A stretch of DNA of 64,000 nt from Hormiphora californensis (taxonomy: Eukaryota; Animalia; Ctenophora): the NCBI GenBank assembly GCA_020137815.1, contig CM035360.1, positions 1,798,001 through 1,862,000 on the forward strand, read 5' to 3'. Below, one piece after another: positions 9,637 to 64,000 of this stretch. Each line of letters opens with the position of its first letter. The stretch's first letter is position 1. Under the pieces are notes generated by a model that was given only the letters and a program-made list of their open reading frames with translations, was not told the DNA's origin and made no database searches. The position numbers and the translations under genes were made by a program.

Positions 9637-11394
9637 TGATTGTCAATGCTTTGATCGGTGCTCTCCATGAATTTTCAGAGAAAAAGATATTTTGAAATTC
9701 GAATTCTTCCTCACCCCGCTTAAGGGTACACCTGGCGTTTTTCATCATCGAGTGCCCAACCAAATGACTTCACCAGGGTTTAGGCCATACAAAATGGACC
9801 TCAAATATGCAATTTTAGCCCTAAAGTCGAATTCATATTTTTGCTACAGCCTATTTTCAAAGTGGCGTTTTTTCAATTTTTGGTGGAATTTTTAACCTCA
9901 GGACCACTTTTTTTGAGATAGAAACATTAAATTCTTGGAATTTGAAGAGAATATAAAGGTAAATAAGCCCAAAGAAGGATTTTTGAAATGGAGCTTATTT
10001 CTGGCCATGAGAACGGTTTACTTTTTTGCTTCTTTGACACGGTGGCTGAGAATGTTCCCATGCTTCATTAGAGATGAAAATCTGGAAATAGTTGCTCAAA
10101 ACGATTATCTATGTGGCCCAAAAATTTTGGAACTTTCCCGCCAAAGATGTGGTGTACAGGGCTTGTTTTGTGAAACCCATCTTTTTGAAAAAGAGGGAAA
10201 TTCCCTGTATCTCAAAAACGGATGATCGTAGAGACCTGCGACCAAGCTTAATCGATTCAGAAGGTCCGATTTTGGGGGGGTCTTCTGAGAGACATTTTGC
10301 TCCTACTCCAACCGTTTTTGCTGTACTTGCAAAAAACCAATTCTATGAAAAGGGGGAACAACTCTATTCCAGTAGCCTGCTTCGGGCTGATTTCCCCCTT
10401 ACTTACTGATACCTTTTTCGCAATTACAGCAAAAACGGTTGGAGTAGGAGCAAAATGTCTCTCAGAAGACCCCCCCAAAATCGGACCTTCTGAATCGATT
10501 AAGCTTGGTCGCAGGTCTCTACGATCATCCGTTTTTGAGATACAGGGAATTTCCCTCTTTTTCAAAAAGATGGGTTTCACAAAACAAGCCCTGTACACCA
10601 CATCTTTGGCGGGAAAGTTCCAAAATTTTTGGGCCACATAGATAATCGTTTTGAGCAACTATTTCCAGATTTTCATCTCTAATGAAGCATGGGAACATTC
10701 TCAGCCACCGTGTCAAAGAAGCAAAAAAGTAAACCGTTCTCATGGCCAGAAATAAGCTCCATTTCAAAAATCCTTCTTTGGGCTTATTTACCTTTATATT
10801 CTCTTCAAATTCCAAGAATTTAATGTTTCTATCTCAAAAAAAGTGGTCCTGAGGTTAAAAATTCCACCAAAAATTGAAAAAACGCCACTTTGAAAATAGG
10901 CTGTAGCAAAAATATGAATTCGACTTTAGGGCTAAAATTGCATATTTGAGGTCCATTTTGTATGGCCTAAACCCTGGTGAAGTCATTTGGTTGGGCACTC
11001 GATGATGAAAAACGCCAGGTGTACCCTTAAAGTGCCCCGATTAGGCATGCAATGGTATCACGTATCGGTTCGTTTCGAACCGTCTAATTAGCAGCAAGAC
11101 ATGCGATACGATGCACTGATTCGATAAACGATTCGGACGTGGTTGAACTTCAGAAAATTTTTATAACTTTTTTTGATTTTTTTAAATTATTTTCTTTTTC
11201 TAATCAGAAATGGTCATGTAATCATGGACATTGCATGGACATTGCATTTAACACTTAGAGGTGTTTTAGTATAGCATTTTGGACAAAAATAGGGTTTTAT
11301 GGGCCAAATATGCTCTACCCCGATTTAACGGACACCCCGATTTAACGGACAAAACCCTTTCCCCCGGGGGTGCCGTTAAATCGGGGTCCGACTG
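9637..11394. mobile_element. Left-truncated copy of the cagtcggaccccgattta (TA-flanked, Tc1/mariner-pogo-like) element, interrupted by a foldback
   Basis: 9637-9723 and 11027-11394 are collinear with about 41947-42383. Confidence 0.85.
9724..11026. mobile_element. 1.3-kb foldback DNA transposon with TTAA target-site duplication (Kolobok-like, non-autonomous)
   Basis: Arms of about 600 bp (9724-10325 and 10425-11026), termini GGGTACACC...GGTGTACCC, TTAA on both sides. An empty site with a single TTAA is at 42030-42033. Confidence 0.9.
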
Positions 11395-27541: not shown

Positions 27542-28852
27542 CTACTGACTATTAATTCCTTCATTAGTTGAATAATAAAACTGTTCAACCTCAACTAACA
27601 GAGGGTGAGATTTACTAAGTGAGAGAGATAAACACTTGAGAGACATATCAAACAATTGTAACGCCCTGTTATAATTATCCAGATACTCAGCTTTGTCAGC
27701 AAACTTTTGATTCAGCTGTAACTTCCCCAGTTTAGCTAGGAACAGTCCTGTGGAGGGGTAACTTTGTGCCCAATCCATCAACCCTACAGTTGCCTTGAGT
27801 CCCGTCCGAAGTGCCGCCTCCCACCGCTCCTCTATAATCAATGCATCTGTTTCCGCCATCAGATGAGCCATAATCTCAATATCTTGCTGAGCCCGGGTGG
27901 TTATGGCAGAGTTGAATGTGGCAATGTTTTTCAACATCACATCGTTTATTTTTGTCACACTTTTGAGCAGTGAGCTCTGGCAGGATGGACATTGCAGATC
28001 ATTGTTTGGGATGTCAATGGCAGGGTTTGAGTGTTCTTTACAAGACGGGCACTCTCTCAGCAGTTGAGTGTCCCGACCCTTTTTACGCTGATCAGTACAC
28101 AACCCGCACGTGCATTCAAAGTTGTACTGCGAGAAAAGTTGCTGATGTCGTGAGAGGAATGGTTTGGGTAGGGAGATGTAGGAGATTGTTATCTGTTCAC
28201 CTGCTGGGATCTCCCTAATCGCAGTCACGTACGCAGTCCGGCCTCTGAATGACAGGACACAGTTCGGATCACAGGAGTGATTTAGCTTAGTTAGTTCGGG
28301 AATTAGCGCTGAACCGATTTCATTAAACTGTGTATCTTCCAATGTGAACAAGTTCACTACCAGTTTGATATACAGTGAATAAACCTTCTCTGGTGCAGCT
28401 GTAGCACACATCTCCCTCACTCCTCTCAACAAAAAAGGGTAATACTGGCATATCTTTTCATTTTCCACGGATTCGTGTTTCATCATACCATCCACTTTGT
28501 AAGTGGACCTCATTTCTGAGGAGGAAACGAGGAGGGCACAAAATCTGATTAAAGGAGGCACAAAATGGGAAGCATTGATCGAACTGAGCAGATCACACTC
28601 TGCCTTGTGGACCTTCCAGTTGTCTCTCTGGCACCCTTCTGAGCAGTAACGAAGGTGTTTACACCGGGAACACCGTTTCAGCGAGGAACATGGCTGGAAA
28701 CAATGGTTACACAGTTCTCGGTGACTCTTCTCGTTCAGGCAGGTGATCATTTGTGAGGTTTTGAAGAGGTTTGTCCGGGGTTTCAGGGTGCTTTTCGCGA
28801 AGAGGCCACTCCCCGTTTTGTCATCGATGTATTTAGAGCAGAATAAAACCAT
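27542..28852 (-). CDS. SMYD-family (SET-MYND) lysine methyltransferase, intronless
   Basis: Split SET (GSGLFA...LNHSCDPNC...EQITISY), MYND (CNHC..CSRC..YCSEGCQRDNWKVHKAEC), post-SET FECTCGLC and a helical C-terminal domain; first ATG at 28852. Confidence 0.93.
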   Translation of the reverse strand: MVLFCSKYIDDKTGSGLFAKSTLKPRTNLFKTSQMITCLNEKSHRELCNHCFQPCSSLKRCSRCKHLRYCSEGCQRDNWKVHKAECDLLSSINASHFVPPLIRFCALLVSSSEMRSTYKVDGMMKHESVENEKICQYYPFLLRGVREMCATAAPEKVYSLYIKLVVNLFTLEDTQFNEIGSALIPELTKLNHSCDPNCVLSFRGRTAYVTAIREIPAGEQITISYISLPKPFLSRHQQLFSQYNFECTCGLCTDQRKKGRDTQLLRECPSCKEHSNPAIDIPNNDLQCPSCQSSLLKSVTKINDVMLKNIATFNSAITTRAQQDIEIMAHLMAETDALIIEERWEAALRTGLKATVGLMDWAQSYPSTGLFLAKLGKLQLNQKFADKAEYLDNYNRALQLFDMSLKCLSLSLSKSHPLLVEVEQFYYSTNEGINSQ

Positions 28853-29115
28853 GTCTAGTGAAAAATAATTGGTCAATAATCACTGCACTATCAAAAAGGG
28901 AAGATTGGCAAATGGCGAGAGCTCTTCCGCAAAAAAAAACGAAGCCGTGGTCCACGGCTGCGTGGATCTGAAAAACAAAACTGGAAAACAGATTTAAGAT
29001 CGACCCAAATTTCCTGAGCTGAGGAAATGGGAATTGTGTGTGTGAAAGCCGGGGTTGCCGGTCCAATTAAAACGGAATAAAAATCAAGGTAATCAGTACA
29101 TATAAGATTAATAAA

Positions 29116-42487: not shown

Positions 42488-43762
42488 TTATTTGAGACCA
42501 GATGCTTCAGCAGCCATTTTCATTGCCAACTCTAACTGCTCAGGAGTTTGAACCATCCACATTCTTTGCCTCCTTAAACCTACCAACACCTCTTTTATGT
42601 CAACCTCAGAGTTACCACTTTGCTTTACCATTCTAGTCAACACATCAGCCAAAACTACCGTGCCCGTCCTTCCCACGCCCCCTAAACAGTGAACCAGCAC
42701 AGGAGAGTTATCTGCTCCTTCATCAATATTTCCAATGGATGAGGCTACAAAATCCTGAATCTGTTCCATGGATGATGGCACACCATAATCAGGCCATCCT
42801 TCAAATCGATGATGAACAACCTCCTTCTCTCCACCACCTTGCTCCTCTAATTTCACCACCATGCGAATGTGGGTTGGGCTAATTTGTTCCTCTCTTTCAA
42901 CTCGGACCCCGGGAACATTGTTCCAGTATTGGAAACGGCGACTTGTGTTTAACATTGCAATAACCCTGACTCCCTGTTCTCGTACCATCCTCCAAAATGA
43001 AACACTTGTTGAGCCATCCTCAAGGGGCATCTGGAGGGAGAAAGTAACATTATCAATCACAGTCAAACCTCGATTTACCAGATAGCCTGACTCCTTGGGG
43101 AATCTCTCTTGAAAATTCACTAACCCCAACACCTTGGGGAATGATTTTTTGCATGGTCTAGGTAAATCGAGGTTCAATAAATCAAGGATTTACTGTACTG
43201 AGGAAGAAATTAACGTCATAGTGTCAAATATCACTCTGCCTGCTGGCATTTGATGTTTCATCTCATAACTAGATGCCCGTTAAGTTGTTTAATGTACGGC
43301 GTACCTGTGTGCAGATGTAGTGTCTGTTAACCTCCGGAACTCGAACATGAGAGGCATTAATGTAACTTCCATCCGCCATCTTCACCAGAGTGTGGTTATA
43401 GGGCCACAGATTACAGTACCTGAATAATATGAAAGGGTGAAGGTAGTATGACGGAACGTGTGAGGACACATTGTCGACACATTGAGAACACATTTAGTCT
43501 TGAGAATACAACGATGGAGAGGGACTCATGAGCGGTGAGCCCAAAGAGGAAGGGAGAGGAGATTCCTAGAAAAATCAATAACTAAATATTATGCTCTTTT
43601 TAACCTGTTTTTGTACGCGTTTTTCTTATTCTTGCCAATAGAAAAAGACAGATCCGCGAAGTTATCGGGTATTTTGAAGAAAAGTGATTCCCACCATTTT
43701 GAGTCGGAGCTAAGTTTCCTTAGATCCAATTTTATCTTGCTAAATGAACCAGCATCTCCCAT
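42488..43762 (-). CDS. Classical non-receptor protein tyrosine phosphatase (catalytic domain only)
   Basis: Exons about 43605-43762, 43304-43419 and 42488-43030, with KNRY, YINAS, YICTQ, FWRMV, WPDYGVP, VHCLGGVGRTG and QR..MVQTPEQ motifs. Confidence 0.92.
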
Positions 43763-44191
43763 GACCTATAAGGAATAAGATTAATAATTAGTTTCCCGCA
43801 TAATAAGGTGCCTAATGTTATGTAGGAGTTCATGTGAAAGGGCCCTTCTTCTCAGCTAGCTTCTGGGTCTGATAAATTATATAATGCATTATAGGTGAAT
43901 ATATTATGCAATCTAATTTCTACTAGCTTCCGTTGCGTCTTTTCATGCTCGCTTCTTCACTCCTATCTAAAATTCTCTCTGACTTCTTATACTTTATCTA
44001 ATCTCGCTAGTCACACTGCTCTCTCGCTATCTCTCTTACTAAGTCATGGGTTATAAGTCATTAGTCACGTGCTGGGCTCATATATGTTTGCGAATTCCCT
44101 CATATATATTTCTTTTCAGTACCCCTATATTTCCTATAGGTCCTTAAATATTTGCTTAACCTTCACATTTTGTCTCGCCAGTACTTTTACC

Positions 44192-45652
44192 ATGAGTTCG
44201 ATTCGCTCTCTCCTGGGGATACACAACATTGTACCAGGCACCTACAATACAATCCACTGCTTCCCAGATCAATCAAATGATGTGGATACTCTCAAAGGAG
44301 TGGTTAGGGCGTGTCAGAAGGAAGGAATTGAACCTGTGGTAGGGCTTTTTCCTGGATCAGATATCGCTGAGAAAAACAAGGAGCTAGTGACATTCTGTAA
44401 CGGGTTTGCAGGGGTGCATGGTATTGGTAGTCTCTCTGCAGTTGATGGTAAACTGTCACTGACTGAGCTGAACAAGTATGCTGACTCAGATACTCTAAAG
44501 GCTTTTTCCCTGGATTGTAGTAACTATGGTGCTGAGATCAAAGATAATTTCAAGACTCTGTTTGGGGAGTGTGCTGGTCTAAAGAAACCTGTGGTTTTGT
44601 GTGCAGATAACAGTGTTCAGCTGACAGAGGCCTTGGTTACCATAGTAACCGATGGACTCCTTGATTTCTACCCAGATTTAGAAGTCATTGTTATGGACGC
44701 AACAGTTGTTCCTGCTCTGGTTTCTAGGCTGACTTCACCCGACCCAAGTGCCAGCCTACAGAAGCACGAACCGGAGGTATACTTTGGCAGGAACATGTTT
44801 TTCGTGTGGAACTTCTCAGATACCTTCTACACGGAGTATTTATTGAAAAAAGTGGGTTGTGATAACCTGCTCCTGGGGTATCCCGCTCCAACAGCCCAAC
44901 TATCCAACCTGGAACAACTCCACCAAGCCAAGGTGGTCTCCTGGAACGGGGCCCGGGTCCTGGGACTGGCAGAGGTTCCCCACTGGCCTCTGAATAGAAG
45001 CCGAATCACTGTTTTCTCCTCAGCTGCAGTGAACTCCCTCTCCTCCATCCTCCGAGACGCCCGAACCGGGTACACCGAGTTCATGGTACAGGGAGATCGG
45101 CTGATGCGGCTGCTTGCGGAGGAGGCTCTTGCTCGTTTACCGGGGGCAACCCCTGCCCTCTTGGAGAGTCCCACGGGTGTATATCAGGGAGTGGTAGATG
45201 ACACGCCCACTGAGAAACTGTGTGTTGTCTCCATTGTCAGGTCTGGTGATATCCTACTGGAGGCGTTCCGACAGCTCCGACCCGGACTAAAAGTCGGTAA
45301 AATCCTGATCCAACGAGACGAGAGCACCCCTGATAAAAGAGCTGTGTTCTACTACAAGAAACTGCCGGGTGACATAGCCAGCTGTCAGGTGATAGTCGTG
45401 GACCCAATGTTGGGTACTGGCGGGAGTCTGGACTGTGCGATGGAGGTGCTAACCAGTGCTGGAGTGGAGAACGTCATGTTTGTCAACCTCTACTCGTGCG
45501 AGGAGGGCCTATCCAGGATCCAACTAAAATACCCCACACTTCATACTGTCACCCTGCATATTGATCTGATGATGAATGAAAAGAAGTATCTAATTCCGGG
45601 GATTGGGGACTTTGGAGATCGGTACTATGGAACTCTCAACCCTCTCGAATAA
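44192..45652 (+). CDS. UPRT: Uracil phosphoribosyltransferase with an N-terminal degenerate amidohydrolase-like domain, copy 1
   Basis: C-terminal DRLMRLLAEEAL, VSIVRSG, GKILIQRDE, VDPMLGTGGS and YLIPGIGDFGDRYYG; about 265-aa N-terminal extension; intronless; first ATG at 44192. Confidence 0.88.
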   Translation: MSSIRSLLGIHNIVPGTYNTIHCFPDQSNDVDTLKGVVRACQKEGIEPVVGLFPGSDIAEKNKELVTFCNGFAGVHGIGSLSAVDGKLSLTELNKYADSDTLKAFSLDCSNYGAEIKDNFKTLFGECAGLKKPVVLCADNSVQLTEALVTIVTDGLLDFYPDLEVIVMDATVVPALVSRLTSPDPSASLQKHEPEVYFGRNMFFVWNFSDTFYTEYLLKKVGCDNLLLGYPAPTAQLSNLEQLHQAKVVSWNGARVLGLAEVPHWPLNRSRITVFSSAAVNSLSSILRDARTGYTEFMVQGDRLMRLLAEEALARLPGATPALLESPTGVYQGVVDDTPTEKLCVVSIVRSGDILLEAFRQLRPGLKVGKILIQRDESTPDKRAVFYYKKLPGDIASCQVIVVDPMLGTGGSLDCAMEVLTSAGVENVMFVNLYSCEEGLSRIQLKYPTLHTVTLHIDLMMNEKKYLIPGIGDFGDRYYGTLNPLE

Positions 45653-46008
45653 CTTTATATTAGGACTCTTGGGTGTTTGTGTCGGCAGTGAGTTATAATG
45701 TTCTTTCCTAATTTTATAACCCTGACATATGATTTAAAATATATCGTTATCAAACTGTTACTCTCGCCGGTTCCCAAATGAAACTAAAAGTCTGTTGAAA
45801 AGGTTAAAAAGACCAGAATATAAAGAAACGAACATCTCACACTAACATAAAAGAGAAACAATATATCCAACTAAAAAAACCACACTAGAATATGTACTGT
45901 TTTTGTTTACCAATATATACGGTGATTGTCTGTTTTAATTTAAGGCACAACCCTTTAAATCGAGGTCTCGTACTTGGTATTTATTTGGTTTTGATGAAAT
46001 CTACCTCT

Positions 46009-47481
46009 CTAATTGGTACCGTAATACCTGTCCCCAAAGTCTCCCACCCCAGGGACAATGTACTTGTGCTCGTTCATCATCAGGTCCATGTGTAATGTGA
46101 CAGTGTGGATGCCAGGATAACTATTCTGGATCCGTGCCAGACCCTCCTCGCAGGAGAACAGGTTCACAAACATGGTCTTGTTTGGGTCAACCCCTGAATC
46201 CGCCAAGACACCCAGTGCACAATCCAGGCTGCCACCAGTGGCTAACATTGGATCGACTACTATAACAGTGCATGAGGTTATATCTGCAGGGAGTTTCTTG
46301 TAGTACAGAACAGGTCGTTTATCAGGGGTGCTCTCGTCTCGTTGGATCAGGATTTTACCGACTTTTAGTCCGGGTCGGAGCTGTCGGAACGCCTCCAGTA
46401 GGATATCACCAGACCTGACAATGGAGACAACACACAGTTTCTCAGTGGGTGTGTCATCTACCACTCCCTGATATACACCCGTGGGACTCTCCAAGAGGGC
46501 AGGGGTTGCCCCCGGTAAACGAGCAAGAGCCTCCTCCGCAAGCAGCCTCATCAGCCGATCTCCCTGTACCATGAACTCGGTGTACCCGGTTCGGGCGTCT
46601 CGGAGGGTGGAGGAGAGGGAGTTCACTGCAGCTGAGGAGAAAACAGTGATTCGGCTTCTATCCAGAGGCCAGTGGGGAACCTCTGCCAGTCCAAGGACCC
46701 GGGCACCGTTCCAGGAGACCACCTTGGCTTGGTGGAGTTGTTCCAGGTGGGATAGTTGGGCTGTTGGGGCAGGGTACCCCAGGAGAAGGTTATCACAACC
46801 AACTTTGTTCAATAAATACTCCGTGTAGAAGGTATCTGAAAAGTTCCACACGAAAAACATGTTCCTGCCAAAGTATACCTCCGGTTCGTGCTTCTGTAGG
46901 CTGGCACTTGGGTCGGGTGAATTCAGCCTAGAAACCAGAGCAGGAACAACTGTTGCATCCATAACAATGACTTCTAAATCTGGGTAGAAATCAAGGAGTC
47001 CATCAGTTACTATGGTAACCAAGGCCTCTGTCAGCTGAACACTGTTATCTGCACATAAAACCACAGGTTTCTTTAGACCAGCACACTCCCCGAACAGCCT
47101 ATAAATTCGTTTATAATCCTCCTGTCGTTCAGCCACTGCGGCACAATGGATTGAAAATGCCTTTACCGGGCCTTCCGTGGAATACTTTTCAATTTCGCCC
47201 AACGCAGCCTCTAAATCCTCTGTACTAAGTCCGGCCACTCCATGAACCCTTCTCTCGAGATCGGAGCATGCTGATGTTAACACCTCGTTCCAGGTTGTGA
47301 GATCTTTGCCGGATGGAAAGAATCCTACCACCGGTTCAGCCGTGTCTTCACAGCTTGATAAAATGCTCGAGATAGCAGTCGGTACATCAGCATTGTGAAC
47401 TGGCGGCGGTGGAAGTCCTGTGAAACGAATGGCATTCTTAAAAACACCGGGCACAATATTCCGTATCCCAAGTAAAGACAT
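46009..47481 (-). CDS. UPRT: Uracil phosphoribosyltransferase with an N-terminal degenerate amidohydrolase-like domain, copy 2
   Basis: VDPMLATGGS and YIVPGVGDFGDRYYG; inverted paralogue of 44192-45652. Confidence 0.88.
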   Translation of the reverse strand: MSLLGIRNIVPGVFKNAIRFTGLPPPPVHNADVPTAISSILSSCEDTAEPVVGFFPSGKDLTTWNEVLTSACSDLERRVHGVAGLSTEDLEAALGEIEKYSTEGPVKAFSIHCAAVAERQEDYKRIYRLFGECAGLKKPVVLCADNSVQLTEALVTIVTDGLLDFYPDLEVIVMDATVVPALVSRLNSPDPSASLQKHEPEVYFGRNMFFVWNFSDTFYTEYLLNKVGCDNLLLGYPAPTAQLSHLEQLHQAKVVSWNGARVLGLAEVPHWPLDRSRITVFSSAAVNSLSSTLRDARTGYTEFMVQGDRLMRLLAEEALARLPGATPALLESPTGVYQGVVDDTPTEKLCVVSIVRSGDILLEAFRQLRPGLKVGKILIQRDESTPDKRPVLYYKKLPADITSCTVIVVDPMLATGGSLDCALGVLADSGVDPNKTMFVNLFSCEEGLARIQNSYPGIHTVTLHMDLMMNEHKYIVPGVGDFGDRYYGTN

Positions 47482-47984
47482 CCCTGGTGTGAAACCTAAA
47501 TTCAGTAATCAGTAATTTTAAATATCATCATTTTGATTTGAAAATAGAGATTTGAAAAATGTAAATGGCGAACAGCAGCACTCGGTAGCTAATTGAGCTC
47601 GAAAAAGTTCACAGTTTAGTTGTCTTCTCTATTATTGGAATTGGCAACGTGAAGCATAACGCATATTTGGCAGATGAAGCCCATAAATTGGTCCAGCTCG
47701 AATCATAGGCTATTTTCTGCAGAGCACACTGCTGGCCAGCGTCAAAATCTGGGTGAGTGCTGACACTTTAGGGTTAGGGCTAAATTAGGGTTAGGGTTGG
47801 GGTTTGGGTTGGGGTTAGGCCTTGACATTCCCTACCAGATAAACTTTGGATTAGCCAACGGTTGAGTGATTTGGCGGTTAGAGCCATTTTAGTGAATCAA
47901 CTTTTTTGGAAGAACGATCCACGGGCGTCGTTACGATCTGGATGCTAAACCACTCAACCGTTTTGGTTAATTCAAAGTTTATCT

Positions 47985-48258
47985 GATCAGAATACCTGAG
48001 GATAGGGTGCCCAATAAACTCTATCACTGGGTGCCTAGTCATGGGAAACGTTCCAGAGGAAGACCGCGTAAAACCTGGTCCTCATGTGTGCTGAATGATT
48101 ATCGAGACGCTACGGGTCAATCCCAGTCTCTCCGTGCAATTACTAACACTGCAGAGAACACAAATGAGTGGAGACAGCTCACGTCATTACGAGCGAGGAT
48201 ACTTGGAGCCGGCCACTCGAATGATTGAGGAGACCGTACCAAGTATCAAGTAAGTAAG
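47985..48258 (+). mobile_element. 3' fragment of an RTE-clade LINE
   Basis: RIPEDRVPNKLYHW..GKRSRGRPRKTW...WR C-terminus, (caagta)n tail, flanked by aagtt(t)atctg. Confidence 0.8.
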
Positions 48259-50449: not shown

Positions 50450-52666
50450 TCAAAAAATGGAATAAATATTAAATATCAATTAGTAAGAAAGACCAGTTTA
50501 GAAAGCGTGAGTAAAATGAGTACTGGTCGTTCTAACTTCACGGTATCACACTCTATGTCAGGATCCTCAACTCTCTCAACTCTCTATCACATTTCTCGTA
50601 ATATAAATTGTCTTCACACATTGTTTTTAACACTCGTATGCCTTCCGGAAGAAGTGGGTTTTCAAGTTTGATTTGAATGATGTGATGGATGAGTTTTCCC
50701 GAAGAGAAGAAGGTAAGGTATTCCATATTACCGGAGCAGCGACACTAAACGCACCTTTACTCGAACAATATCTGGTATAGTTCTTGTCAAGTAAGGTTTT
50801 GTCAGCATCACTTCGTAGACTTTTTGTTTTCGGTTTTCGGAGTTGAATCAGCCTTGAGAGGTAAGGTGGAGCTATACCATTTAGTGATTTGTATGTGAGT
50901 AGACACAGCTTGTATTGCACTCTTTCTCGAACTGGTAGGAAATGAAGCTGCTTGCGAAGGTTTGTGGTGCCTTGGTAGAAGCGTTGTCCAAAGACGAAGC
51001 GGGCCGCAGAGTTTTGAATCTTCTGTAGACGATCTATGTCTTTAGCAGAAGAACCAGCAAGGAGGCTGTTACAGTAATCCAGTCTGCTGTGGATTAAACT
51101 GTTTACAAGTTTGATTTTCAGGTTTACTCCCAACATTCTGTGGATTTTCCAGAGATTCATAAGGGCGAGTTGGCATGTCCTTACCGTCCTGGATACGTGA
51201 CCAGAGAGGGAGAGCTCTGAGTCCAAAAATACACCAAGGTTTCGTACAAGTGTGAGTGGCTTTGTGGGCTCCTGGTTGCTCATCGTTTGAAGAGTTGCAG
51301 GATTCGTTGTTTTATCATGTTTGTTGTTTAACACGATGATTTCAGTTTTGCTGGGGTTGAGTCTTAGGAAGTTCTCGGACATCCATGCTTTGATGTGGTT
51401 CAAGCAACCCTGCAATTTCGTCTCGAGGTCCAGGAGAGAATCATTGCTGAACGAAACATACAGTTGAGTATCGTCAGCATATAGTTCCACCATCAGTCCA
51501 TAGTGCCTAGCAATACTTTCCAACTCCTTTGTATACAAAATGAACAACAGTGGTCCAAGTATAGAGCCCTGTGGCACTCCGATGTTAATGGCCAAGGGCG
51601 AAGATGTGGATGTCTCAATTTTCACAGAGGCTTTCCTATCTTTGAGGTAGGAGGCAAACCATTCAAGGGCAGTACCTTCAACACCATAATTCCTCTTCAG
51701 TTTCCCGAGGAGTATTTCATGGTTGATGGTGTCGAAGGCAGCACTGAGGTCTAGTAATACAAGTACTGCCTTCGACTTGGTGTCTGTTATAAGGAGGAGA
51801 TCATTAACCACTTTCACAAGTGTTGTCTCCGTGCTGTGGTTTTTCCGGTAAGCAGATTGTACTCCAGGAAATAGCTCGTTTGTCTCGAGATGCTCGGTAA
51901 GCTGTAAAGAGGCACATTTTTCAATGATTTTGGATATAAACGCCAAGTTGGACACCGGCCTGTAGTTGTTGAGTTCTTCAGGGCTTCCTTTTTTCTTGAA
52001 CGAGGGCCTAATGAGTGATTGCTTGAGCTGTTCAGGGACCAGACCTTCCTGTAAGCTTCTGTTTACAATATCAGAGATGAGAGGAAGTAGTTTTGGAAGA
52101 ACAGTTACAAGTTTCCCGGTGGGGATTGGGTCGAGATCACAGTGCTTTCTCTCCATAGAAAGAATGATAGAACTGAGTTCCTCATCCGAGACTTTTCGAA
52201 AAGCTGAAAATGGGGTGGCAGTGAAGCCAGTTGTTTTTGGAAGTTCTGGTAGGGTTTCAGATTGTTCGTTTTCGACTTTGATTGCTTCGTAGATATCCTC
52301 GATTTTCGATTTGAAAAAGGACCCAAAGCTGTCTGCTGTTTCTCCACTCGGTAGCTCTAGTGGGATTTTATCTTTGCCCAGCAGCTTGTTTATCACTCCA
52401 CTGACCACGGCTGGATCATCTGCAACGGTTTCAAGCTTTCCACGATAGAAATTTACTCTGGTTTTCATTAGGAATCGAGATGTTTCCTTCATAGATTTAT
52501 TTAGAGCTGTTCTCGCTTGTTTGTGTTCTTCCTTTTTGGTGGAGTCTTTCAAGGTTGTTTTTAGAGCTCTTTCGAATGTCCTGCGGGAGGTTTTAGCATC
52601 CTGACACTCTTTGTCCAGCCATGGCGGGTCGTCTGTCTCTTTAACGACCTTTTCTTCAAGCGGAGA
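50450..52666 (-). mobile_element. 5'-truncated L2-clade LINE with an intact RT domain
   Basis: ORF 50627-52552 (open upstream to PWLDKEC) with NYRPVSNL, QSAYRKNHSTET, LDLSAAFDT, GVPQGSILGP, YADD and SRLDYCNSLL; no endonuclease domain. Confidence 0.93.
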
Positions 52667-53779: not shown

Positions 53780-53888
53780 TACACACATCGCGAAACCCAG
53801 AGATTTGCAAGCATGCACGTAACCGGCCCCCGATGGGGCGGTCATGTGTACGGTCAAGACCCACTAACACACGCCCTCAAACAGAAGT

Positions 53889-55230
53889 TCATGGTTGTGT
53901 ATTGCACGCTTGATCTGATGCCCATGAATCTCTAAGAAGTTTACAGTTCTTGAGGAATCGGTTAAGATAGCTGCAGTGGTGTTCGGAAAATACTGTGAAA
54001 AAGTCCTTTTCTGCGATGGCGAATCTTAGTGACTCAGGGAGTGTATCTCGGATATGGGAGTATGCTGGACATGTGGTGATGACGTGTTCCTCGTTCTCAC
54101 GTTTTGATTCAGGGAACGGGAGGTTGTCAAGAAGCCGTCGGTTCGAGTCATCACAGCAAAATCTACAGTGTTTAGGCTGGTTAGATTGTGAGACGTGAGT
54201 ATCTCGAGGTCTCGATTCTGAGATCGTGGGCACTGACTCTGATTTTGCTAACCTCCTTTCTGTCGGCTCTTTTTATGTTCAAATAATCCTCGAGGCCGTA
54301 ACTTGATTGAACCGAGTTGTAGAAGTGCATTTTAGACTGGTTCTGGCGAAGTGATTCCCAGTGGGTAACCATCTGATGTTCCATGGTTTGCCTTGCAGGG
54401 CCGTTATCACTATGAAGTTTATTCCAGAAGGTGCAGTACCAGTCCAGTTCCAGAGTTTTCTGCTCCTTTGCTGCTAGACCTAGAAGTGAGTCTTCATCGA
54501 CACACTTGGACATGACCCTGGCAAAGTAATGGAGGCATTGGTTCAGTACGGTGATCGAAATTCAGAAATTGGTGCTCTACCAGTCTCCCCGTAACAAGCG
54601 GTGTTGGTGCTCTTTTTGTGGACCCCAAGTGCCCATTTGATGAATTTGAGTTGAACTTTTTCGAAGGGGTCCGCGGTTATCCGCTTCATGTACGTTTGAC
54701 AGTTAGTAGGCGTAGAGTGGAGCAACTTTGCAGATTCGGAATACGGGAGCCAGATTGGGCTGCTGTATGTGATGATGGGGGTTATTAGAGCGTCAAAAAG
54801 CTTGAACGCTGCCCAAGCCGAGAGGGCGTCTCCATTCACTGTTTTCCTCAGAAGAAAGACTGCTTTACTCCCTTTGGTGGAGAGGTTAGTAATTGCTGCC
54901 TTCATACTTCGCTGGCAGAGAATACAATTCCCAGATAAGTGTACTCTTTTACCGAATCAAGTGTTTACCGAGAAGCTGGAATCCATGGCTGTCCTTCAGA
55001 ACTCTGCCGTAAGGATTGAAGACTAGGATTTTGGTCTTTTCTATGTTTATCTCTAACTCCCAGGTGGAAGAGTAATTTCCCAAGATAGAGAGGAGGCTAT
55101 CCATTGAACTTTTATCGAGTGATAGCAGCACTATGTCGTCAGCCCATGAGGTGGTTGACGTCGACGCCCCCTAGTACTGGAAATAGTCCTTTCACGTTGT
55201 TTATATATTAGGAGTTTGGGTATCCAAATC
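53889..55230 (-). mobile_element. RTE-X-like LINE fragment, frameshifted copy
   Basis: Fragmented ORFs 53889-54233, 54181-54513, 54543-54905 and 54949-55131 match ORF 60682-61968. Confidence 0.85.
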
Positions 55231-55838
55231 AATTAGCGGGTTTGGTTTGGTTAGGGTTGCTTATCTGGGACAGTAAACAGTCACACAGCCAAGTCTCGCC
55301 GACCAGCCAAGAAAGCATAGTGCCGAATCGATGCGGATCATCCTTTTGCTACCAGATTGTCTTCTGTCTAATGGTCCCAGCCACATCATATACAGTTGCA
55401 TGGCAGGTAGTATGTGAGATCTGACCCTTAGTGTAATGATCTGATCCTGGGTGGGTTGATCTGTGATCCAATCTAATGACGGATATTTTTGGCCCAATCA
55501 ACATTTTACGCATCATGATATAGTAAACATGTTAACTTTATTTTTAAGTTGAGAAGAGGGGTCAGCCGTACCACTAGAACACTGAAAATTTAGAATTTAC
55601 TCTTCCACACTTTTCTGCCACTTTTATGTTCTTCACTTCTTCATCCCTTGATCTTTTGGTCCTCTGAATGACGTTACTAACACCTCGTCGCTCAAGCACC
55701 TTTGAACTACTAGTCTGCTAAGGTGTTGAATTCAAGTCTTGAATCTTGAATCTTGAATCTAGCTAACCTCTCGTGACACTTTCTCAAGCCAATGTTCTAC
55801 CACAAACTTCGCTTTGTCTTTGTAGCAGCTAAAATGAG

Positions 55839-58800
55839 ATGACTCTCTTTGTTTTCGTGTGTTACGTAGTTGTCGTCGCTAGAGGACTTTTCGATGATAA
55901 CGATGGTGGGTGTCCGGTAGCAGTCGACAATGGGTTTTTGGTTAGGTCATGCCAAGACCAAGAAGTTTCATCCTGGCATGGCTTTCTTATGAAATGCCTT
56001 AACTCTTCCACCATGTACTACAAAAAGTTTACACTTGACATTTCCGACAGAAAAATAAAACCCTATGTAACGACTTTGTGCCCTAACGATTCTATCCAGT
56101 ATCAGGCTTGCGGGAGTGGCAGTTTCGTGCCCTTGTACGATCCCGCTATAAACCTCTTCCAAACATCCCCCGTGTGTGGGAAGTTGTGTTACGAACATGA
56201 CATGGATATGTACGGGTTTCACATGTCATCTCAAACATGTCCCGGGGCTCATAATTATAGTCATGGTCGAGTTAGGAAAACCATCTCCACCGTTGAGGGC
56301 GACATTATTACGATCTTGATTAAAGAAGGAGGCATATGTGACGGTCGTTGTGATGAAGTGGAGCTGGAAGAAAACATAGCGGCACCTACGTTGACATGTG
56401 TCGATGAAAAATCTTGCGATGGATATAATTATGGGGCTGTCATGGCTAAGCAAGAATATTTTTATGTCTTTACTCCCTTCAACGATTTACTCGAACTGAT
56501 AGGTTCTATGAAAAAATCTAAGAATAACACTTGTGCTGATTTTCCGCTTCATAACGCATCACGTTGCTTTATTCCCTTACCACTGCACTCAACTAAATAT
56601 CTAATTAGTTATGATGGTGTATCTTATTGTCATGACGGTTTAGACCAGACAAACTGTTCGGATCCAGCTAAGATCGCCGGTTCGTGCCTTATCGGCGGAT
56701 ATCTCTCTACAGTTTCCATTTATATTCTCTGTCAGGAGAAGTCAATGTTGTGTGATGATGATATGCACAAAAAGTGCCCAACGATTAACCGGTATTGCAC
56801 CATTCATAAGCATCAGTTATGCAATGGGCAAGATGATTGTGCTATGGGTGCAGATGAGCGGAAGGCGACGTGTCTTAAGCTCACCCAACGATCGTGTGTT
56901 CGTAGTTTTAGCCAAAATCAGGGTATTCTTAGGATTCCAGTGGACTGGGTCCAGGATGGAGATGTAGACTGTCTTGACGGGATAGATGAAAAGGCTAACT
57001 GGCAAACGTGCGGCAAAGGCATCAGGAGGACAATTAAATGGTCAACTAAGAAATGTACCAATGTCTTCCTCTGCAAACATAACATGGAAAAATTTTTAGA
57101 GGCCACCCTTTTATGTTCCTTTCCCTCAAACTGTGACGAAGAAGTGTGCCGCATGGCTAAAAGCAGGCCACAAATATCAAAACAGATGCTTAGCACCAGC
57201 CTAACAGAAGGAATAAAACTCAAGAGTTCAGTTTGCACAAAAGGCATTCAATCTATCCTTCTTCTCACAGACCAAATTTGTCGATCTAAAACGTTCCATC
57301 ATCCCTTCCATCTGTTCTTCGGTAAAAACTTTACAACCAAATTAGTTTTTCTGACTACAAAACGCGATTGTAGGTACTTGTACGGTGAAGCATATGTGTT
57401 TTACAGCTGTTCAGGACTTTGCTACAACACACCGTGTCCCTTGAAAAGACCCATCCTTCATAACACTTGTAGCAACCTCAGAAACACCTTTTATTCTCTC
57501 AACTTCGAGCTTGGCTCAATTACCGTTGTACAAAAGTCTCGTGAACGGTTCCACAACAACTTCTTTGTTTGTAAAAACACAAAATGCGTCCTGTTTGAGA
57601 AGGTGTGCGATCTTGTTGATGACTGTGGGGACAGGTCCGACGAGGAGGAATGTACGAACAACTTCCAGTGTTCTGATAAGTCCGGATTCTTAGCTTTGAG
57701 TCAGAAGTGTGATGGAAAGATTGACTGCAAGGACTTCTCTGATGAATGTAATGAGAGTTGTAGGAGGAAAGCTGTAAACAGTAATGCCATTTTGGGAGTT
57801 GCCTTTGTCATGGGAATTACAGGGTTCGTTTTTGGAATTGGTGGACTTATTAAGAACACCAAACAGAAGTCGGAAAAGAGTGGCGAATTCATCAATCAAG
57901 CCATGGTCCTGATGATTTCGTTTGGAGATCTACTGACATCTGTTTATCTCCTTACCCTCACTATAATCCACTGGATCCACGGTTCCGGGTTCTGTGAGTA
58001 TCAAATTGAATGGATTAGTGGAGCCCCTTGTACCATCATTGGAGTTTTGAATAGCATTGGATCATCCATTTCTTCACTTGTGATGGCCTTAGCCAGCTGC
58101 TTCCGACTCCATGGTACAGTAATGGCCCTTCGATACCGCCGTTCAAAGAAGGTTACTCTGAAGCTGAAGATAAATTTAGGTGCATTACTCGCAGTCGTCA
58201 CATCGATATCTTTAGCAGTATCTACTTTTCCATTGTTCGACACTTTCAATGAATGGTTTGTCAATGGACTAGTCTTTGAAAGAGGCTTTACACTATTTCT
58301 TGGAGTGATGGATAAAAGTCAACTGCTGAAGATTGTTCGGGGTTACCATGGAAGCCACGAAACCAGACGAAGTCAGTCCGACAACACTGTGTCTTGGAAC
58401 ACATATCAAGAAATGATTTCTGAGATGTTTTCCAAGGATTATGATCCGGTAAGGGGCAAAAGGCTGTCTTTCTACGGTAACGACCCAGCGTGTATGTTTA
58501 AGGCATTTGTCCTGTCGGATGACCCACAAGTTCTTTTCGTATGGGCATACCTCAGCTTCCATTTTCTCTGCTTTTTATGTGTAGCGATATGCCATGGGAT
58601 GATTGCAGTTCTCGTTAAAAGATCACATATCCAAAGTACCAGGACGTCCAGCTCACTCAATTGCAATGTCTCTTTGATCTGCCTAACTGATTTTTGCTGC
58701 TGGATGCCCTTCCTTATCTGCTGCATCCTCCACACAGCTGAGGTTGTTGATATGTCACCATGGTACCAGATCTTCTCCCTTAACATTCTCCCCCTCAACT

Positions 58801-60273: not shown

Positions 60274-60681
60274 GCTGGGGTTAGGGCTTGACATTTCCTA
60301 TCAGATAAACTTTGGATTAGCCAAAACGGTTGAGTTAGCCGTTAGACACTGTGTCTATAGCAGAGATGTCAGGCGGCAGGCCCATCGGCAGGAACTACAG
60401 ACAGCAGGGGATAATACTGGATCACACCAAGTCGAGTTGTTCCAGTTCAAAGCAAAGGTAGAAATAGAAATAGAAAACAGAAATTGAAGCCGAAATATGC
60501 GACTGTGGCCTTCTTTGTCCAAGTAAGAAGAGAATATATAGATCGTACATATGACCACCGAGCAAGCATCGTACACACATCGCGAAACCCAGAGATTTGC
60601 GAGCATGCACGTAACAGGCCCCCGATGGGGCGGTCATGTGTAACGGTCAAGACCCACTAACACACGCCCTCAAACAGAAGT

Positions 60682-61968
60682 TCATGGTTGTGTATTGCAC
60701 GCTTGATCTGATGCCCATGAATCTCTAAGAAGTTTACAGTTCTTGAGGAGTCGGTTAAGATGCAGTGGTGCGATGGCGAATCTTAGTGACTCAGGGAGTG
60801 TATCTCGGATATGGGAGTATGCTGGACATGTGGTGATGACGTGTTCCTCGTTCTCAAGTATTGATTCAGGGAACGGGAGGTTGTCAAGAAGCCGTCGGTT
60901 CGAGTCATCACAGCAAAATCTACAGTGTTTAGGCTGGTTAGATTGTGAGTATCTCGAGGTCTCGATTCTGAGATCGTGGGCACTGACTCTGATTTTGCTA
61001 ACCTCCATTCTGTCGGCTCTTTTTATGTTCAAATAATCCTCGAGGCCGTAACTTGATTGAACCGAGTTGTAGAAGTGCATTTTAGACTGGTTCTGGCGAA
61101 GTGATTCCCAGTGGGTAACCATCTGATGTTCCATGGTTTGCCTTGCAGGGCCGTTATCACTATGAAGTTTATTCCAGAAGGTGTACCAGTCCAGTTCCAG
61201 AGTTTTCTGCTCCTTTGCTGCTAGACCTAGAAGTGAGTCTTCATCGCCACACTTGGACATGACCCTGGCAAAGTATTGGAGGCATTGGTTCAGTACGGTG
61301 ATCGAAATTGGTGCTCTACCAGTCTCCCCGTAACAAGCGGTGTTGGTGCTCTTTTTGTGGACCCCAAGTGCCCATTTGATGAATTTGAGTTGAACTTTTT
61401 CGAAGGGGTCCGCGGTTATCCGCTTCATGTACGTTTCACAGTTAGTAGGCGTAGAGTGGAGCACCTTTGCAGATTCGGAATACGGGAGCCAGATTGGGCA
61501 GCTGTATGTGATGATGGGGGTTATTAGAGCGTCAAAAAGCTTGAACGCTGCCCAAGCCGAGAGGGCGTCTCCATTCACTGTTTTCCTCAGAAGAAAGACT
61601 GCTTTACTCCCTTTGGTGGAGAGGTTAGTAATTGCTGTCTTCATACTTCCGCTGGCAGAGAATACAATTCCCAGATAAGTGTACTCTTTTACCGAATCAA
61701 GTATTTTACCGAGTAGCTGGAATCCATGGCTGTCCTTCAGAACTCTGCCGGAAGGATTGAAGACTAGGATCTTGGTCTTTTCTATGTTTATCTCTAACTC
61801 CCAGGTGGAAGAGTAATTTCCCAAGATAGAGAGGAGGCTATCCATCGAACTTTTATTGAGTGATAGCAGCACTATGTCGTCAGCCCATAAGAGGTGGTTG
61901 ACGTCGACGCCCCCTAGTACTGGAAATAGTCCTTTCACGTTGTATAGGAGTTTGGGTATCCAAATCAA
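60682..61968 (-). mobile_element. 5'-truncated RTE-X-like LINE, open copy
   Basis: LLWADDIVL, INIEKTK, YTYLGI, LGVHKKSTNTACYGETGR, SAHDLRIETSRY and CRFC...EEHVITTC. Confidence 0.88.
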
Positions 61969-62668
61969 TTAGCGGGTTTGGTTTGGTTAGGGTTGCTCAT
62001 CTGGGACAGTAAACAGTCACACAGCCAAGTCTCGCCAACCAGCCAAGAAAGCATAGTGCCGAATCGATGCGGATCATCCTTTTGCTACCAGATTGTCTTC
62101 TGTCTAATGGTCCCAGCCACATCATATACAGTGGCATGGCAGGTAGTATGTGAGATCTGATCCTTAGTGTAATGATCTGATCCTGGGTGGGTTGATCTGC
62201 GATCCAATCTAATGACGGATATTTTTGGCCTAATCAACATTTTACATGCATGATCAAGTTTAACCCCTTTTCGCATCATGATATAGTAAACAATGTTTAC
62301 TAAACATGTTAACTCCGTCCTGCCTTATAATAGGGGCAATAGATTTTAAGTTGGGAAGAGGGGTCAGCCTTACCACTAGAACACTGAAAATTTAGAATTT
62401 ATTCTTCCAAACTTTTCTGCCACTTTTATGTTCTTCATCCCTTGATCTTTTGTTCCTCTGAATGACGTTACTAACACCTCGTCGCTCAAGCACCTACTAG
62501 TATGCTAAGGTGTTGAATTCCAGTCTTGAATCTCGAATCTACCGCGTGGGCCAATAAAAAGGGAGGGTCTAAAATCTTAAATTTCTCTGTAGCTAACCTC
62601 TCGTGACACTTTCTCAATCCAGTGTTCTACCACAAACTTCGCTATGTTTTTGTAGCAGCTAAAATGAG

Positions 62669-64000
62669 ATGACTCTCTTTGTTTTCGTGTGTTACGTAGT
62701 TGTCGTCGCTAGAGGACTTTTCGATGATAACGATGGTGGGTGTCCGATAGCAGTCGACAATGGGTTTTTGGTTAGGTCATGCCAAGACCAAGAAGTTTCA
62801 TCCTGGGATGGCTTTCTTATGAAATGCCTTAACTCTTCCACCATGTACTACAAAAAGTTTACATTTGACATTTCCGACAGAAAAATGAAATCCTATGTAA
62901 CGACTTTGTGCCCTAACGATTCTATCCAGTATCAGGCTTGCGGAAGTGGCAGTTTCGTGCCCTTGTACGATCCCGCTATAAACCTCTTCCAAACATCCCC
63001 CGTGTGTGGGAAGTTGTGTTACGAACATGACATGGATATGTACGGGTTTCACATGTCATCTCAAACATGTCCCGGGGCTCATAATTATAGTCATGGTCGA
63101 GTTAGGAAAACCATCTCCACCGTTGAGGGCGACATTATTACGATCTTGATTAAAGAAGGAGGCATATGTGACGGTCGTTGTGATGAAGTGGAGCTGGAAG
63201 GAAACATAGCGGCACCTACGTTGACATGTGTTGATGAAAAATCTTGTAATGGATATAATTATGGGGCTGTGGCTAAGCAAGAATATGGTTATGTCTTTAC
63301 TCCCTTCAACGATTTACTCGAACTGATTTCTCTCTCTGTGATAAAGCCTAAGAATAACATGAACACTTGTTCTGATTTTCCGCTTCATAACGCATCACGT
63401 TGCTTTATTCCCTTACCACACTCAACTATATATCTATGTAGTTATGTTGGTGTATCTTATTGTCATGACGGTTTAGACCAGACAAACTGTTCGGATCCAG
63501 CAAAGATTGCCGGTTCGTGCCTTATCGGCGGATATCTCTCTACAGTTTCCGTTTATATTCTCTGTCAGGAGAAGTCAATGTTGTGTGATGATGATATGCA
63601 CAAAAAGTGCCCAACGATTAACCGGTATTGCACCATTCATAAGCATCAGTTATGCAATGGGCAAGATGACTGTGCTATGGGTGCAGATGAGCGGAAGGCG
63701 ACGTGTCTTAAGCTCACCCAACGATCGTGTGTTCGTAGTTTTAGCCAAAATCAGGGTATTCTTAGGATTCCAGTGGACTGGGTCCAGGATGGAGATGTAG
63801 ACTGTCTTGACGGGATAGATGAAAAGGCTAACTGGCAAACGTGCGGCAAAGGCATCAGGAGGACAATTAAATGGTCGACTAAGAAATGTACCAATGTCTT
63901 CCTCTGCAAACATAACATGGAAAATTTTTTAGAGGCCACCCTTTTATGTTCCTTTCCCTCAAACTGTGACGAAGAAGTGTGCCGCATGGCTAAAAGCAGG
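62669..64000 (+). CDS. Second LDLa-GPCR copy, 5' part (runs off the window)
   Basis: Near-identical to 55839 onward; the indels I saw are multiples of 3, so the frame appears to be kept. Confidence 0.88.
   Translation, partial: MTLFVFVCYVVVVARGLFDDNDGGCPIAVDNGFLVRSCQDQEVSSWDGFLMKCLNSSTMYYKKFTFDISDRKMKSYVTTLCPNDSIQYQACGSGSFVPLYDPAINLFQTSPVCGKLCYEHDMDMYGFHMSSQTCPGAHNYSHGRVRKTISTVEGDIITILIKEGGICDGRCDEVELEGNIAAPTLTCVDEKSCNGYNYGAVAKQEYGYVFTPFNDLLELISLSVIKPKNNMNTCSDFPLHNASRCFIPLPHSTIYLCSYVGVSYCHDGLDQTNCSDPAKIAGSCLIGGYLSTVSVYILCQEKSMLCDDDMHKKCPTINRYCTIHKHQLCNGQDDCAMGADERKATCLKLTQRSCVRSFSQNQGILRIPVDWVQDGDVDCLDGIDEKANWQTCGKGIRRTIKWSTKKCTNVFLCKHNMENFLEATLLCSFPSNCDEEVCRMAKSR

Follow-up and report, generated by a model that had tools for sequence, protein, structure and literature searches.

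What is the partner fused to uracil phosphoribosyltransferase (UPRT) in two neighboring genes of the ctenophore Hormiphora californensis, and does that partner still work as an enzyme? The genes lie in a 64,000-nucleotide stretch of contig CM035360.1 (positions 1,798,001 to 1,862,000; hereafter the window, whose own numbering is used below). They form a convergent pair, 356 bp apart, and each is a single open reading frame (ORF) encoding a TIM barrel followed by a UPRT domain. On the evidence below, the fusion is a real and conserved form of UPRT in ctenophores, in which the partner is a pseudo-enzyme, and it is apparently undescribed.

A TIM barrel joined to UPRT

The original prediction, made from the letters of the window, was of two fusion genes with about 265 to 270 amino acids (aa) ahead of UPRT. 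The ORFs agree with it, each giving ~270 aa plus UPRT:

44192 to 45652, + strand: gene A coding sequence (CDS), barrel-UPRT fusion, 486 aa, one ORF
44246 to 44986, + strand: gene A TIM barrel of the ACMSD/IDCase/LigW clan, without catalytic residues, ~aa 19 to 265; fold modelled on copy B
45017 to 45634, + strand: gene A UPRT domain, aa 276 to 481; Pfam UPRTase E = 2.6e-55; phosphoribosyl pyrophosphate (PRPP) loop and GIGDFGDRY intact
46009 to 47481, − strand: gene B CDS, barrel-UPRT fusion, 490 aa, one ORF
46678 to 47436, − strand: gene B TIM barrel without catalytic residues, ~aa 16 to 268; beta5 His replaced by C143, beta6 His deleted near M174/D175, beta8 Asp replaced by P237, R185 kept
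46015 to 46638, − strand: gene B UPRT domain, aa 282 to 489; Pfam UPRTase E = 4.8e-57; PRPP loop and GVGDFGDRY intact

The start Met of gene A coincides with the N-terminus of Pleurobrachia bachei model P0005, and gene B matches P. bachei model P0016 at 97%. Is the UPRT half complete? The PF14681 scores of A and B were 187.5 and 193.2 bits against a cut-off of 27. The PRPP and uracil-pocket motifs had been predicted to be intact, and they are: VDPML[A/G]TGGS, KILIQRDE and PG[V/I]GDFGDRY all align without loss to Toxoplasma gondii UPRT (41% identity by Foldseek). The ctenophore domain thus shares its fold, PRPP loop, KILIQRDE flexible-loop motif and GxGDFGDRY pocket with the eukaryotic FUR1/Toxoplasma-type UPRTs (PF14681; PDB 1UPF, 1BD3 and 7RH8). 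Its nearest named stand-alone relatives are those of Rhopilema, Hydra, Clytia, Tigriopus, Eurytemora and Caligus, at 54 to 58% to the domain of the Mnemiopsis cluster. These cnidarian and copepod FUR1-type UPRTs are single-domain proteins, whereas the ctenophore proteins add the ~270-aa barrel and a presequence-like N-terminus.

Fusions of uridine kinase with UPRT are known, namely plant UKL and UCKL1, and these likewise place an N-terminal partner before UPRT in pyrimidine salvage. Their partner, however, is a P-loop kinase; in ctenophores it is a dead TIM barrel, while the UPRT looks intact. Human and Drosophila UPRT (krishah) are animal members of the family whose PRPP site is conserved as in the ctenophore domain. 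According to the available text of PMC4536494 they lack two uracil-pocket glycines, whereas the ctenophore domain retains the microbial-type GxGDFGDRY.

The fold of the N-terminal half was less evident from Pfam, since Amidohydro_2 fell below the cut-off in the window proteins (E = 1.3e-3 for B, no match for A; 8.7e-11 in one homolog). We therefore rely on a structure model of gene B aa 1 to 274, with a mean predicted local distance difference test (pLDDT) of 71 and a predicted template modelling score of 0.74. Foldseek matched this model to the cog2159 decarboxylases IDCase, ACMSD and LigW (E = 7.5e-9 to 1.5e-7), and VIA aligned it to them with Z scores of 18 to 19.8 and a root-mean-square deviation of 2.9 to 4.0 over 216 to 235 residues. 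Both comparisons, together with the family profile, bear out the predicted Amidohydro_2 TIM barrel, and the five motifs quoted for it are present in the translations. A suggested link to bacterial cytosine deaminase found no support: neither the profile hits nor the 50 best VIA rows included one, and other amidohydrolases scored well below the cog2159 enzymes.

The barrel has the TIM-barrel fold of the cog2159/Amidohydro_2 decarboxylases (Z = 18 to 20), among them fungal IDCase (4HK5, 4LAK), ACMSD (2WM1), LigW (4INF, 4ICM), gamma-resorcylate decarboxylase and Staphylococcus aureus 3NUR. It also shares their G(I/L)FDxYPxL signature and terminal KI...NA helix. Unlike them, it lacks the metal ligands and the catalytic Asp, has shortened loops and is fused to UPRT.

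To what extent is the active site gone? We aligned seven fused rows with intact bacterial enzymes. The catalytic positions, as given in the accessible part of PMC6305744, are H241, R252 and D314 of LigW_Na, with the beta8 Asp as catalytic acid, and H12, H14 and H195 of IDCase. The full set was kept in none of the seven rows; the beta1 metal pair (H/E-x-H), the beta6 His and the beta8 Asp were gone from every one. At beta1, the fused protein L001 reads VIDVDSP where relatives have VIDMHSH, and copy A has one His (H22) in the beta1 region, a poorly modelled part. The beta5 His is C143 in the window copies and survives only in the lobate-type proteins P0018 to P0020. In dimeric ACMSD a helix Arg reaches into the neighboring subunit (PMC9021598, in the portion available), and this trans-subunit Arg is retained only in the Pleurobrachia copies (R185). 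The loops after beta1 and beta5 are shortened, and the barrel as a whole is ~100 aa shorter. The barrel is therefore without the metal and acid sites of the decarboxylases, as the predicted pseudo-enzyme should be, and decarboxylase or deaminase activity appears unlikely from these residues.

The barrel is nevertheless under purifying selection. Between A and B, pN/pS was 0.012/0.114 (~0.1) in aa 124 to 270, which lie inside a gene-converted tract described below. The barrel is full-length across deeply split lineages and carries the invariant motifs DG[IL][LF]D[FY]YP and PxxSLQK. Mean identity across five lineages was 34% for the barrel versus 62% for UPRT, with a barrel peak of 42.5% in aa 146 to 210. 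The helix by which ACMSD touches its partner subunit (PMC9021598, same portion) lies in this peak, which suggests a role in assembly.

Distribution and origin of the fusion

Is the fusion local to this window? Queried with the N-terminal part, the databases gave back nothing but proteins of the same architecture or their fragments, apart from six bacterial repeat proteins that were dropped as chance matches (P0009, P0010 and P0012 to P0015, 6 of the 12 matches in one search). P0011 was not taken as a full homolog, being a fragment of the P0018 type. The members are three P. bachei models, a Mnemiopsis leidyi cluster, P0017, P0007/L001, P0008, P0018, P0019 and L005, and these searches found the fusion in no named non-ctenophore. 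Among 80 metagenome UPRT loci, the barrel was present only in L001 and L005. The fusion is thus old and spans distant ctenophores. Looking elsewhere for the same fusion with intact His and Asp, as had been proposed, therefore gave a divided answer: the architecture recurs in Pleurobrachia, Mnemiopsis and relatives, but the full catalytic set does not recur with it.

The literature searched yields no account of a barrel-UPRT fusion, in line with the original proposal of a candidate new architecture: among the matches listed there was no published description of it in ctenophores, with subscription journals, genome-paper supplements and domain-architecture databases outside the search. The architecture may be catalogued somewhere without comment. 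The available part of a survey of horizontal gene transfer in Mnemiopsis (PMC6005172) has no mention of uracil, UPRT or amidohydrolase.

In the UPRT tree, the fused proteins and six barrel-less forms of 228 to 230 aa made one group (support 100/98) that includes named ctenophore proteins, and we read this clade as ctenophore. When the short forms as fission products were compared with the short forms as a sister group, the approximately unbiased test gave P = 0.19. The barrel-less UPRTs inside the clade (P0035 to P0040, and L002 at 39 to 728) have acidic N-termini and the same linker motif; they are possibly cytosolic counterparts.

The sister of the ctenophore-type clade (99/91) comprises medusozoan and copepod UPRTs plus a small group that includes giant-virus-like contigs. 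The stand-alone medusozoan and copepod members (P0060, P0076, P0078, P0079, P0086, P0096 and P0101) give the clade a patchy distribution among animals, and the four that were examined keep a microbial-type GxGDYGDRY pocket, unlike human and fly. Two giant-virus-like contigs, L007 (1656 to 2327) and L008 (4974 to 5645), carry UPRT nested among animal-type UPRTs. Both are gene-dense and intronless, with ankyrin/ARM, glycosyltransferase 11, cytidylyltransferase and GATase genes.

Was the gene acquired horizontally, as had been raised? Its UPRT half is of animal type, since it falls in the tree with the UPRTs of cnidarians and copepods; a bacterial transfer of the entire gene is therefore unsupported. 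Transfer mediated by a eukaryote or a virus is possible, because the range of the UPRT clade in animals is patchy. Both CDSs are intronless, as first noted; the contrast with intron-rich neighbors held less well, since an ORF for a SET and MYND (SMYD-like) protein in the window (445 aa, 27545 to 28879, − strand) is also uninterrupted, and intronlessness of A and B therefore says little. At the related loci L013 and L071, UPRT is broken into several ORFs, a pattern that introns would give, and a retro-copy step in ctenophores is possible.

No close donor was found among the prokaryotic genomes and plasmids searched, from which absence elsewhere does not follow. When genome contigs were searched for a close donor or for the fusion in prokaryotes, none of 25 candidates matched at first, and a second round gave three weak local matches among 58. 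Of ~300 genomes of one phylum, 6 or 7 of 301 had matches, the best at 34 bits, and the plasmid search returned stand-alone amidohydrolases only (20 to 27%).

Which decarboxylase, then, supplied the barrel? The structural identity to cog2159 enzymes is only 14 to 20%, too low to fix the subfamily. In a first VIA comparison 3NUR, ACMSD, LigW and IDCase tied at Z = 18.5 to 18.0, with TatD-like and other amidohydrolases at 13.6 or less; in a second, IDCase came first (19.8 to 19.4), tied with ACMSD (19.4 to 18.9). The family profile ranked 3NUR and LigW2 highest at 48 bits (3NUR E = 8.5e-12), followed by ACMSD at 27 and IDCase at 25. The least-degenerate homolog, L001, matched 3NUR (1.3e-7), IDCase (7e-7 to 2e-6), LigW2 (1.6e-6) and human ACMSD (6.6e-4). 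In a barrel tree with six references, all bacterial, the fused barrels formed one group (100/100), whose long stem lay between the ACMSD-like and the LigW-like groups. A LigW/3NUR-type donor is our leading candidate, although we would give it less than an even chance; an IDCase-type donor is a slightly weaker candidate, and a duplicate of animal ACMSD is doubtful.

The 100/100 barrel group and the 100/98 UPRT group point to a single origin of the fusion. We infer that a cog2159 decarboxylase gene and an animal-type UPRT were fused once in an early ctenophore, that the decarboxylase site would have decayed before the sampled lineages split and that a tail-to-tail duplication probably followed in the Pleurobrachia lineage.

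The N-terminus and possible roles of the barrel

Where might the fused protein act? In the fused proteins, 15 to 25 residues precede strand beta1, and in the window copies these are:

44192 to 44245, + strand: gene A N-terminal extension, candidate mitochondrial presequence, weak in this copy; ~aa 1 to 18, acid-free, first acidic residue 26, one Arg, no R-3 motif
47437 to 47481, − strand: gene B N-terminal extension, candidate mitochondrial presequence; ~aa 1 to 15, basic and acid-free, first acidic residue 32, three Lys/Arg in the first 25, no R-3 motif

All 11 fused N-termini compared were free of Asp and Glu in the first 25 aa, where each of the six barrel-less sister forms has four to five. 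The R-3 mitochondrial cleavage motif, R-x-[FLY]-[SA], was present in 6 of the 11. For this set P0018 was begun at residue 8 and the longer frame of L001 was used. This composition suggests that the fused family is likely imported into mitochondria; import is less sure for copy A, because neither window copy has the motif and A carries a single basic residue.

On balance, and by a modest preference, we favor an active UPRT, likely mitochondrial, with the dead barrel as an oligomerization or allosteric module. Judging by its motifs, the UPRT half would make uridine monophosphate (UMP) from uracil and PRPP; the N-terminal composition would place this reaction inside mitochondria, and the concentration of conservation at the subunit-contact region would fit the barrel as a scaffold.

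Several observations weigh against this account. The 11 N-termini represent only ~5 lineages, and the set excludes seven models whose starts are truncated or extended upstream (P0004, P0007, P0019, P0027, P0028, P0031 and P0034). The R-3 motif is absent from both window copies, P0005, P0016 and P0008. The first 25 aa of the window copies overlap strand beta1, an assignment that is itself loose because model residues 1 to 48 have a pLDDT below 50. Barrel-less sister UPRTs exist, so that the barrel is not needed for this type of UPRT. Evidence of expression is thin: two oligo-dT RNA runs gave four short exact contigs of depth 3 to 5, inside A or B or directly past a stop, of which one touches A-specific and one B-specific sequence, and these may reflect DNA carry-over.

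Could the barrel be a frozen passenger, kept for folding or solubility in a cytosolic protein that is otherwise an ordinary UPRT? Its evolution about twice as fast as that of UPRT, the barrel-less forms and the weak presequence signal of the window copies would all fit. We nevertheless consider a passenger unlikely, given a barrel kept full-length across deeply split lineages with invariant motifs and low pN/pS, and given the consistent contrast between fused and short N-termini.

Rather unlikely, in our judgment, is a history in which a fungal-style IDCase-UPRT fusion for thymidine salvage came down to ctenophores and was moved to mitochondria; there the dead barrel would be a pyrimidine sensor tuning the UMP supply of the organelle, with barrel-less copies at work in the cytosol. 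An IPNS-like oxygenase was considered as the thymine-hydroxylase partner and remains a guess; the available text of PMC4488382 is without any mention of thymine.

Present-day channelling through the barrel is unlikely because its decarboxylase or deaminase activity is unlikely. A relic of IDCase-UPRT channelling would be a barrel that, though dead, can still bind uracil or some other pyrimidine and either pass it to UPRT or sense it. For such a relic, IDCase makes uracil, the UPRT substrate (PMC6305744, accessible part), IDCase chains came first by VIA and the least-degenerate homolog matches IDCase above human ACMSD. However, the VIA scores are tied with ACMSD, the family profile favors 3NUR/LigW2 over IDCase, the region of the uracil-contact Asn98 is not conserved and the ~100-aa shortening includes losses behind beta1 and beta5, two places that carry pocket residues. 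We regard the relic as improbable.

Very improbable is a barrel that is still an enzyme with a rewired site, for example one built on the beta4 Cys and the beta5 His/Cys/Glu. In its favor, all 8 rows of alignment A6 have Cys at both C113 and C72, the beta5 His persists in three lobate-type proteins and R185 in the Pleurobrachia copies. Yet the catalytic-acid beta8 Asp is missing from all seven fused rows, the residues retained differ between lineages and the beta4 Cys is Val in L005.

Two copies with a converted core

The two genes differ sharply in divergence along their length, and the following features bear on their age:

44561 to 45337, + strand: gene-converted core in A, aa 124 to 382, 97.6% nucleotide identity to B
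46318 to 47094, − strand: gene-converted core in B, aa 130 to 388
45653 to 46008, no strand: 356-bp spacer between the convergent 3' ends, bridged by contigs here and in related organism B

The core of 777 bp runs from the middle of the barrel to the middle of UPRT. Outside it, A and B share 51% of nucleotides over aa 1 to 123 and 67% over aa 383 to 486, with synonymous sites near saturation. Contigs from four runs of two samples (S1 and S2) match the unique ends of both copies, a contig at 45308 to 46347 bridges both 3' ends in three of the four runs, and read depth in these samples is higher over the shared core than over its flanks; for these reasons the two copies are not an assembly artifact. 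Related organism B has the same tail-to-tail arrangement on one contig, with a deeper core there too, and both copy types occur among the P. bachei models. A and B are therefore old paralogs with a gene-converted core. At two core positions one residue is common to both window copies and another to both P. bachei models compared; such agreement within species and difference between them is what repeated conversion within each species would produce. The near-identical core in inverted orientation might suggest an assembly duplication or a decaying pseudogene pair, but deeply diverged ends with open frames, both copies and the spacer in two samples and a second organism, and both types among the P. 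bachei models leave that reading with almost no weight.

Upstream of gene A lies one further feature:

44160 to 44181, + strand: pyrimidine tract ending in AG, candidate splice acceptor in the 5' untranslated region (UTR) of gene A, 10 nucleotides upstream of the ATG

A similar tract precedes the ATG of the homolog L001 (209 to 229), and the two may mark a 5' UTR intron or a trans-splice acceptor. The noncoding stretch at 43619 to 44146, also upstream of gene A, is ~85% conserved in related organism B, and one probe from it was single-copy in the window; an Rfam scan of 42 to 50 kb gave no match, and hence none for this stretch. Gene A is adjoined by an uninterrupted ORF with a protein-tyrosine-phosphatase domain and an HCLGGVGR motif (42488 to 43177, − strand). 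Directly upstream of gene B is a high-copy repeat with TTAGGG-like runs (47728 to 48000). Elsewhere the window holds a reverse transcriptase ORF of the long interspersed nuclear element type (50627 to 52552, − strand), a 1.3-kb palindromic element (97%, 9720 to 11030) and a 3.4-kb direct repeat (92%, 53780 to 57167 and 60572 to 64000); a 1065-aa ORF encoding an LDL-receptor class A domain begins within this repeat.

In two species, the locus gives a clean example of gene conversion that runs across a domain boundary in inverted paralogs. The architecture is apparently specific to ctenophores and new to pyrimidine salvage, in that an apparently intact UPRT is paired with a pseudo-enzyme. The usual description of animal UPRT is of an enzyme without the uracil-pocket glycines (PMC4536494, as above); in the clade of ctenophores, medusozoans and copepods they are retained. 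In such animals an endogenous enzyme may suffice for RNA labelling with 4-thiouracil and may confer sensitivity to 5-fluorouracil. If the presequence is real, it points to uracil salvage inside animal mitochondria.

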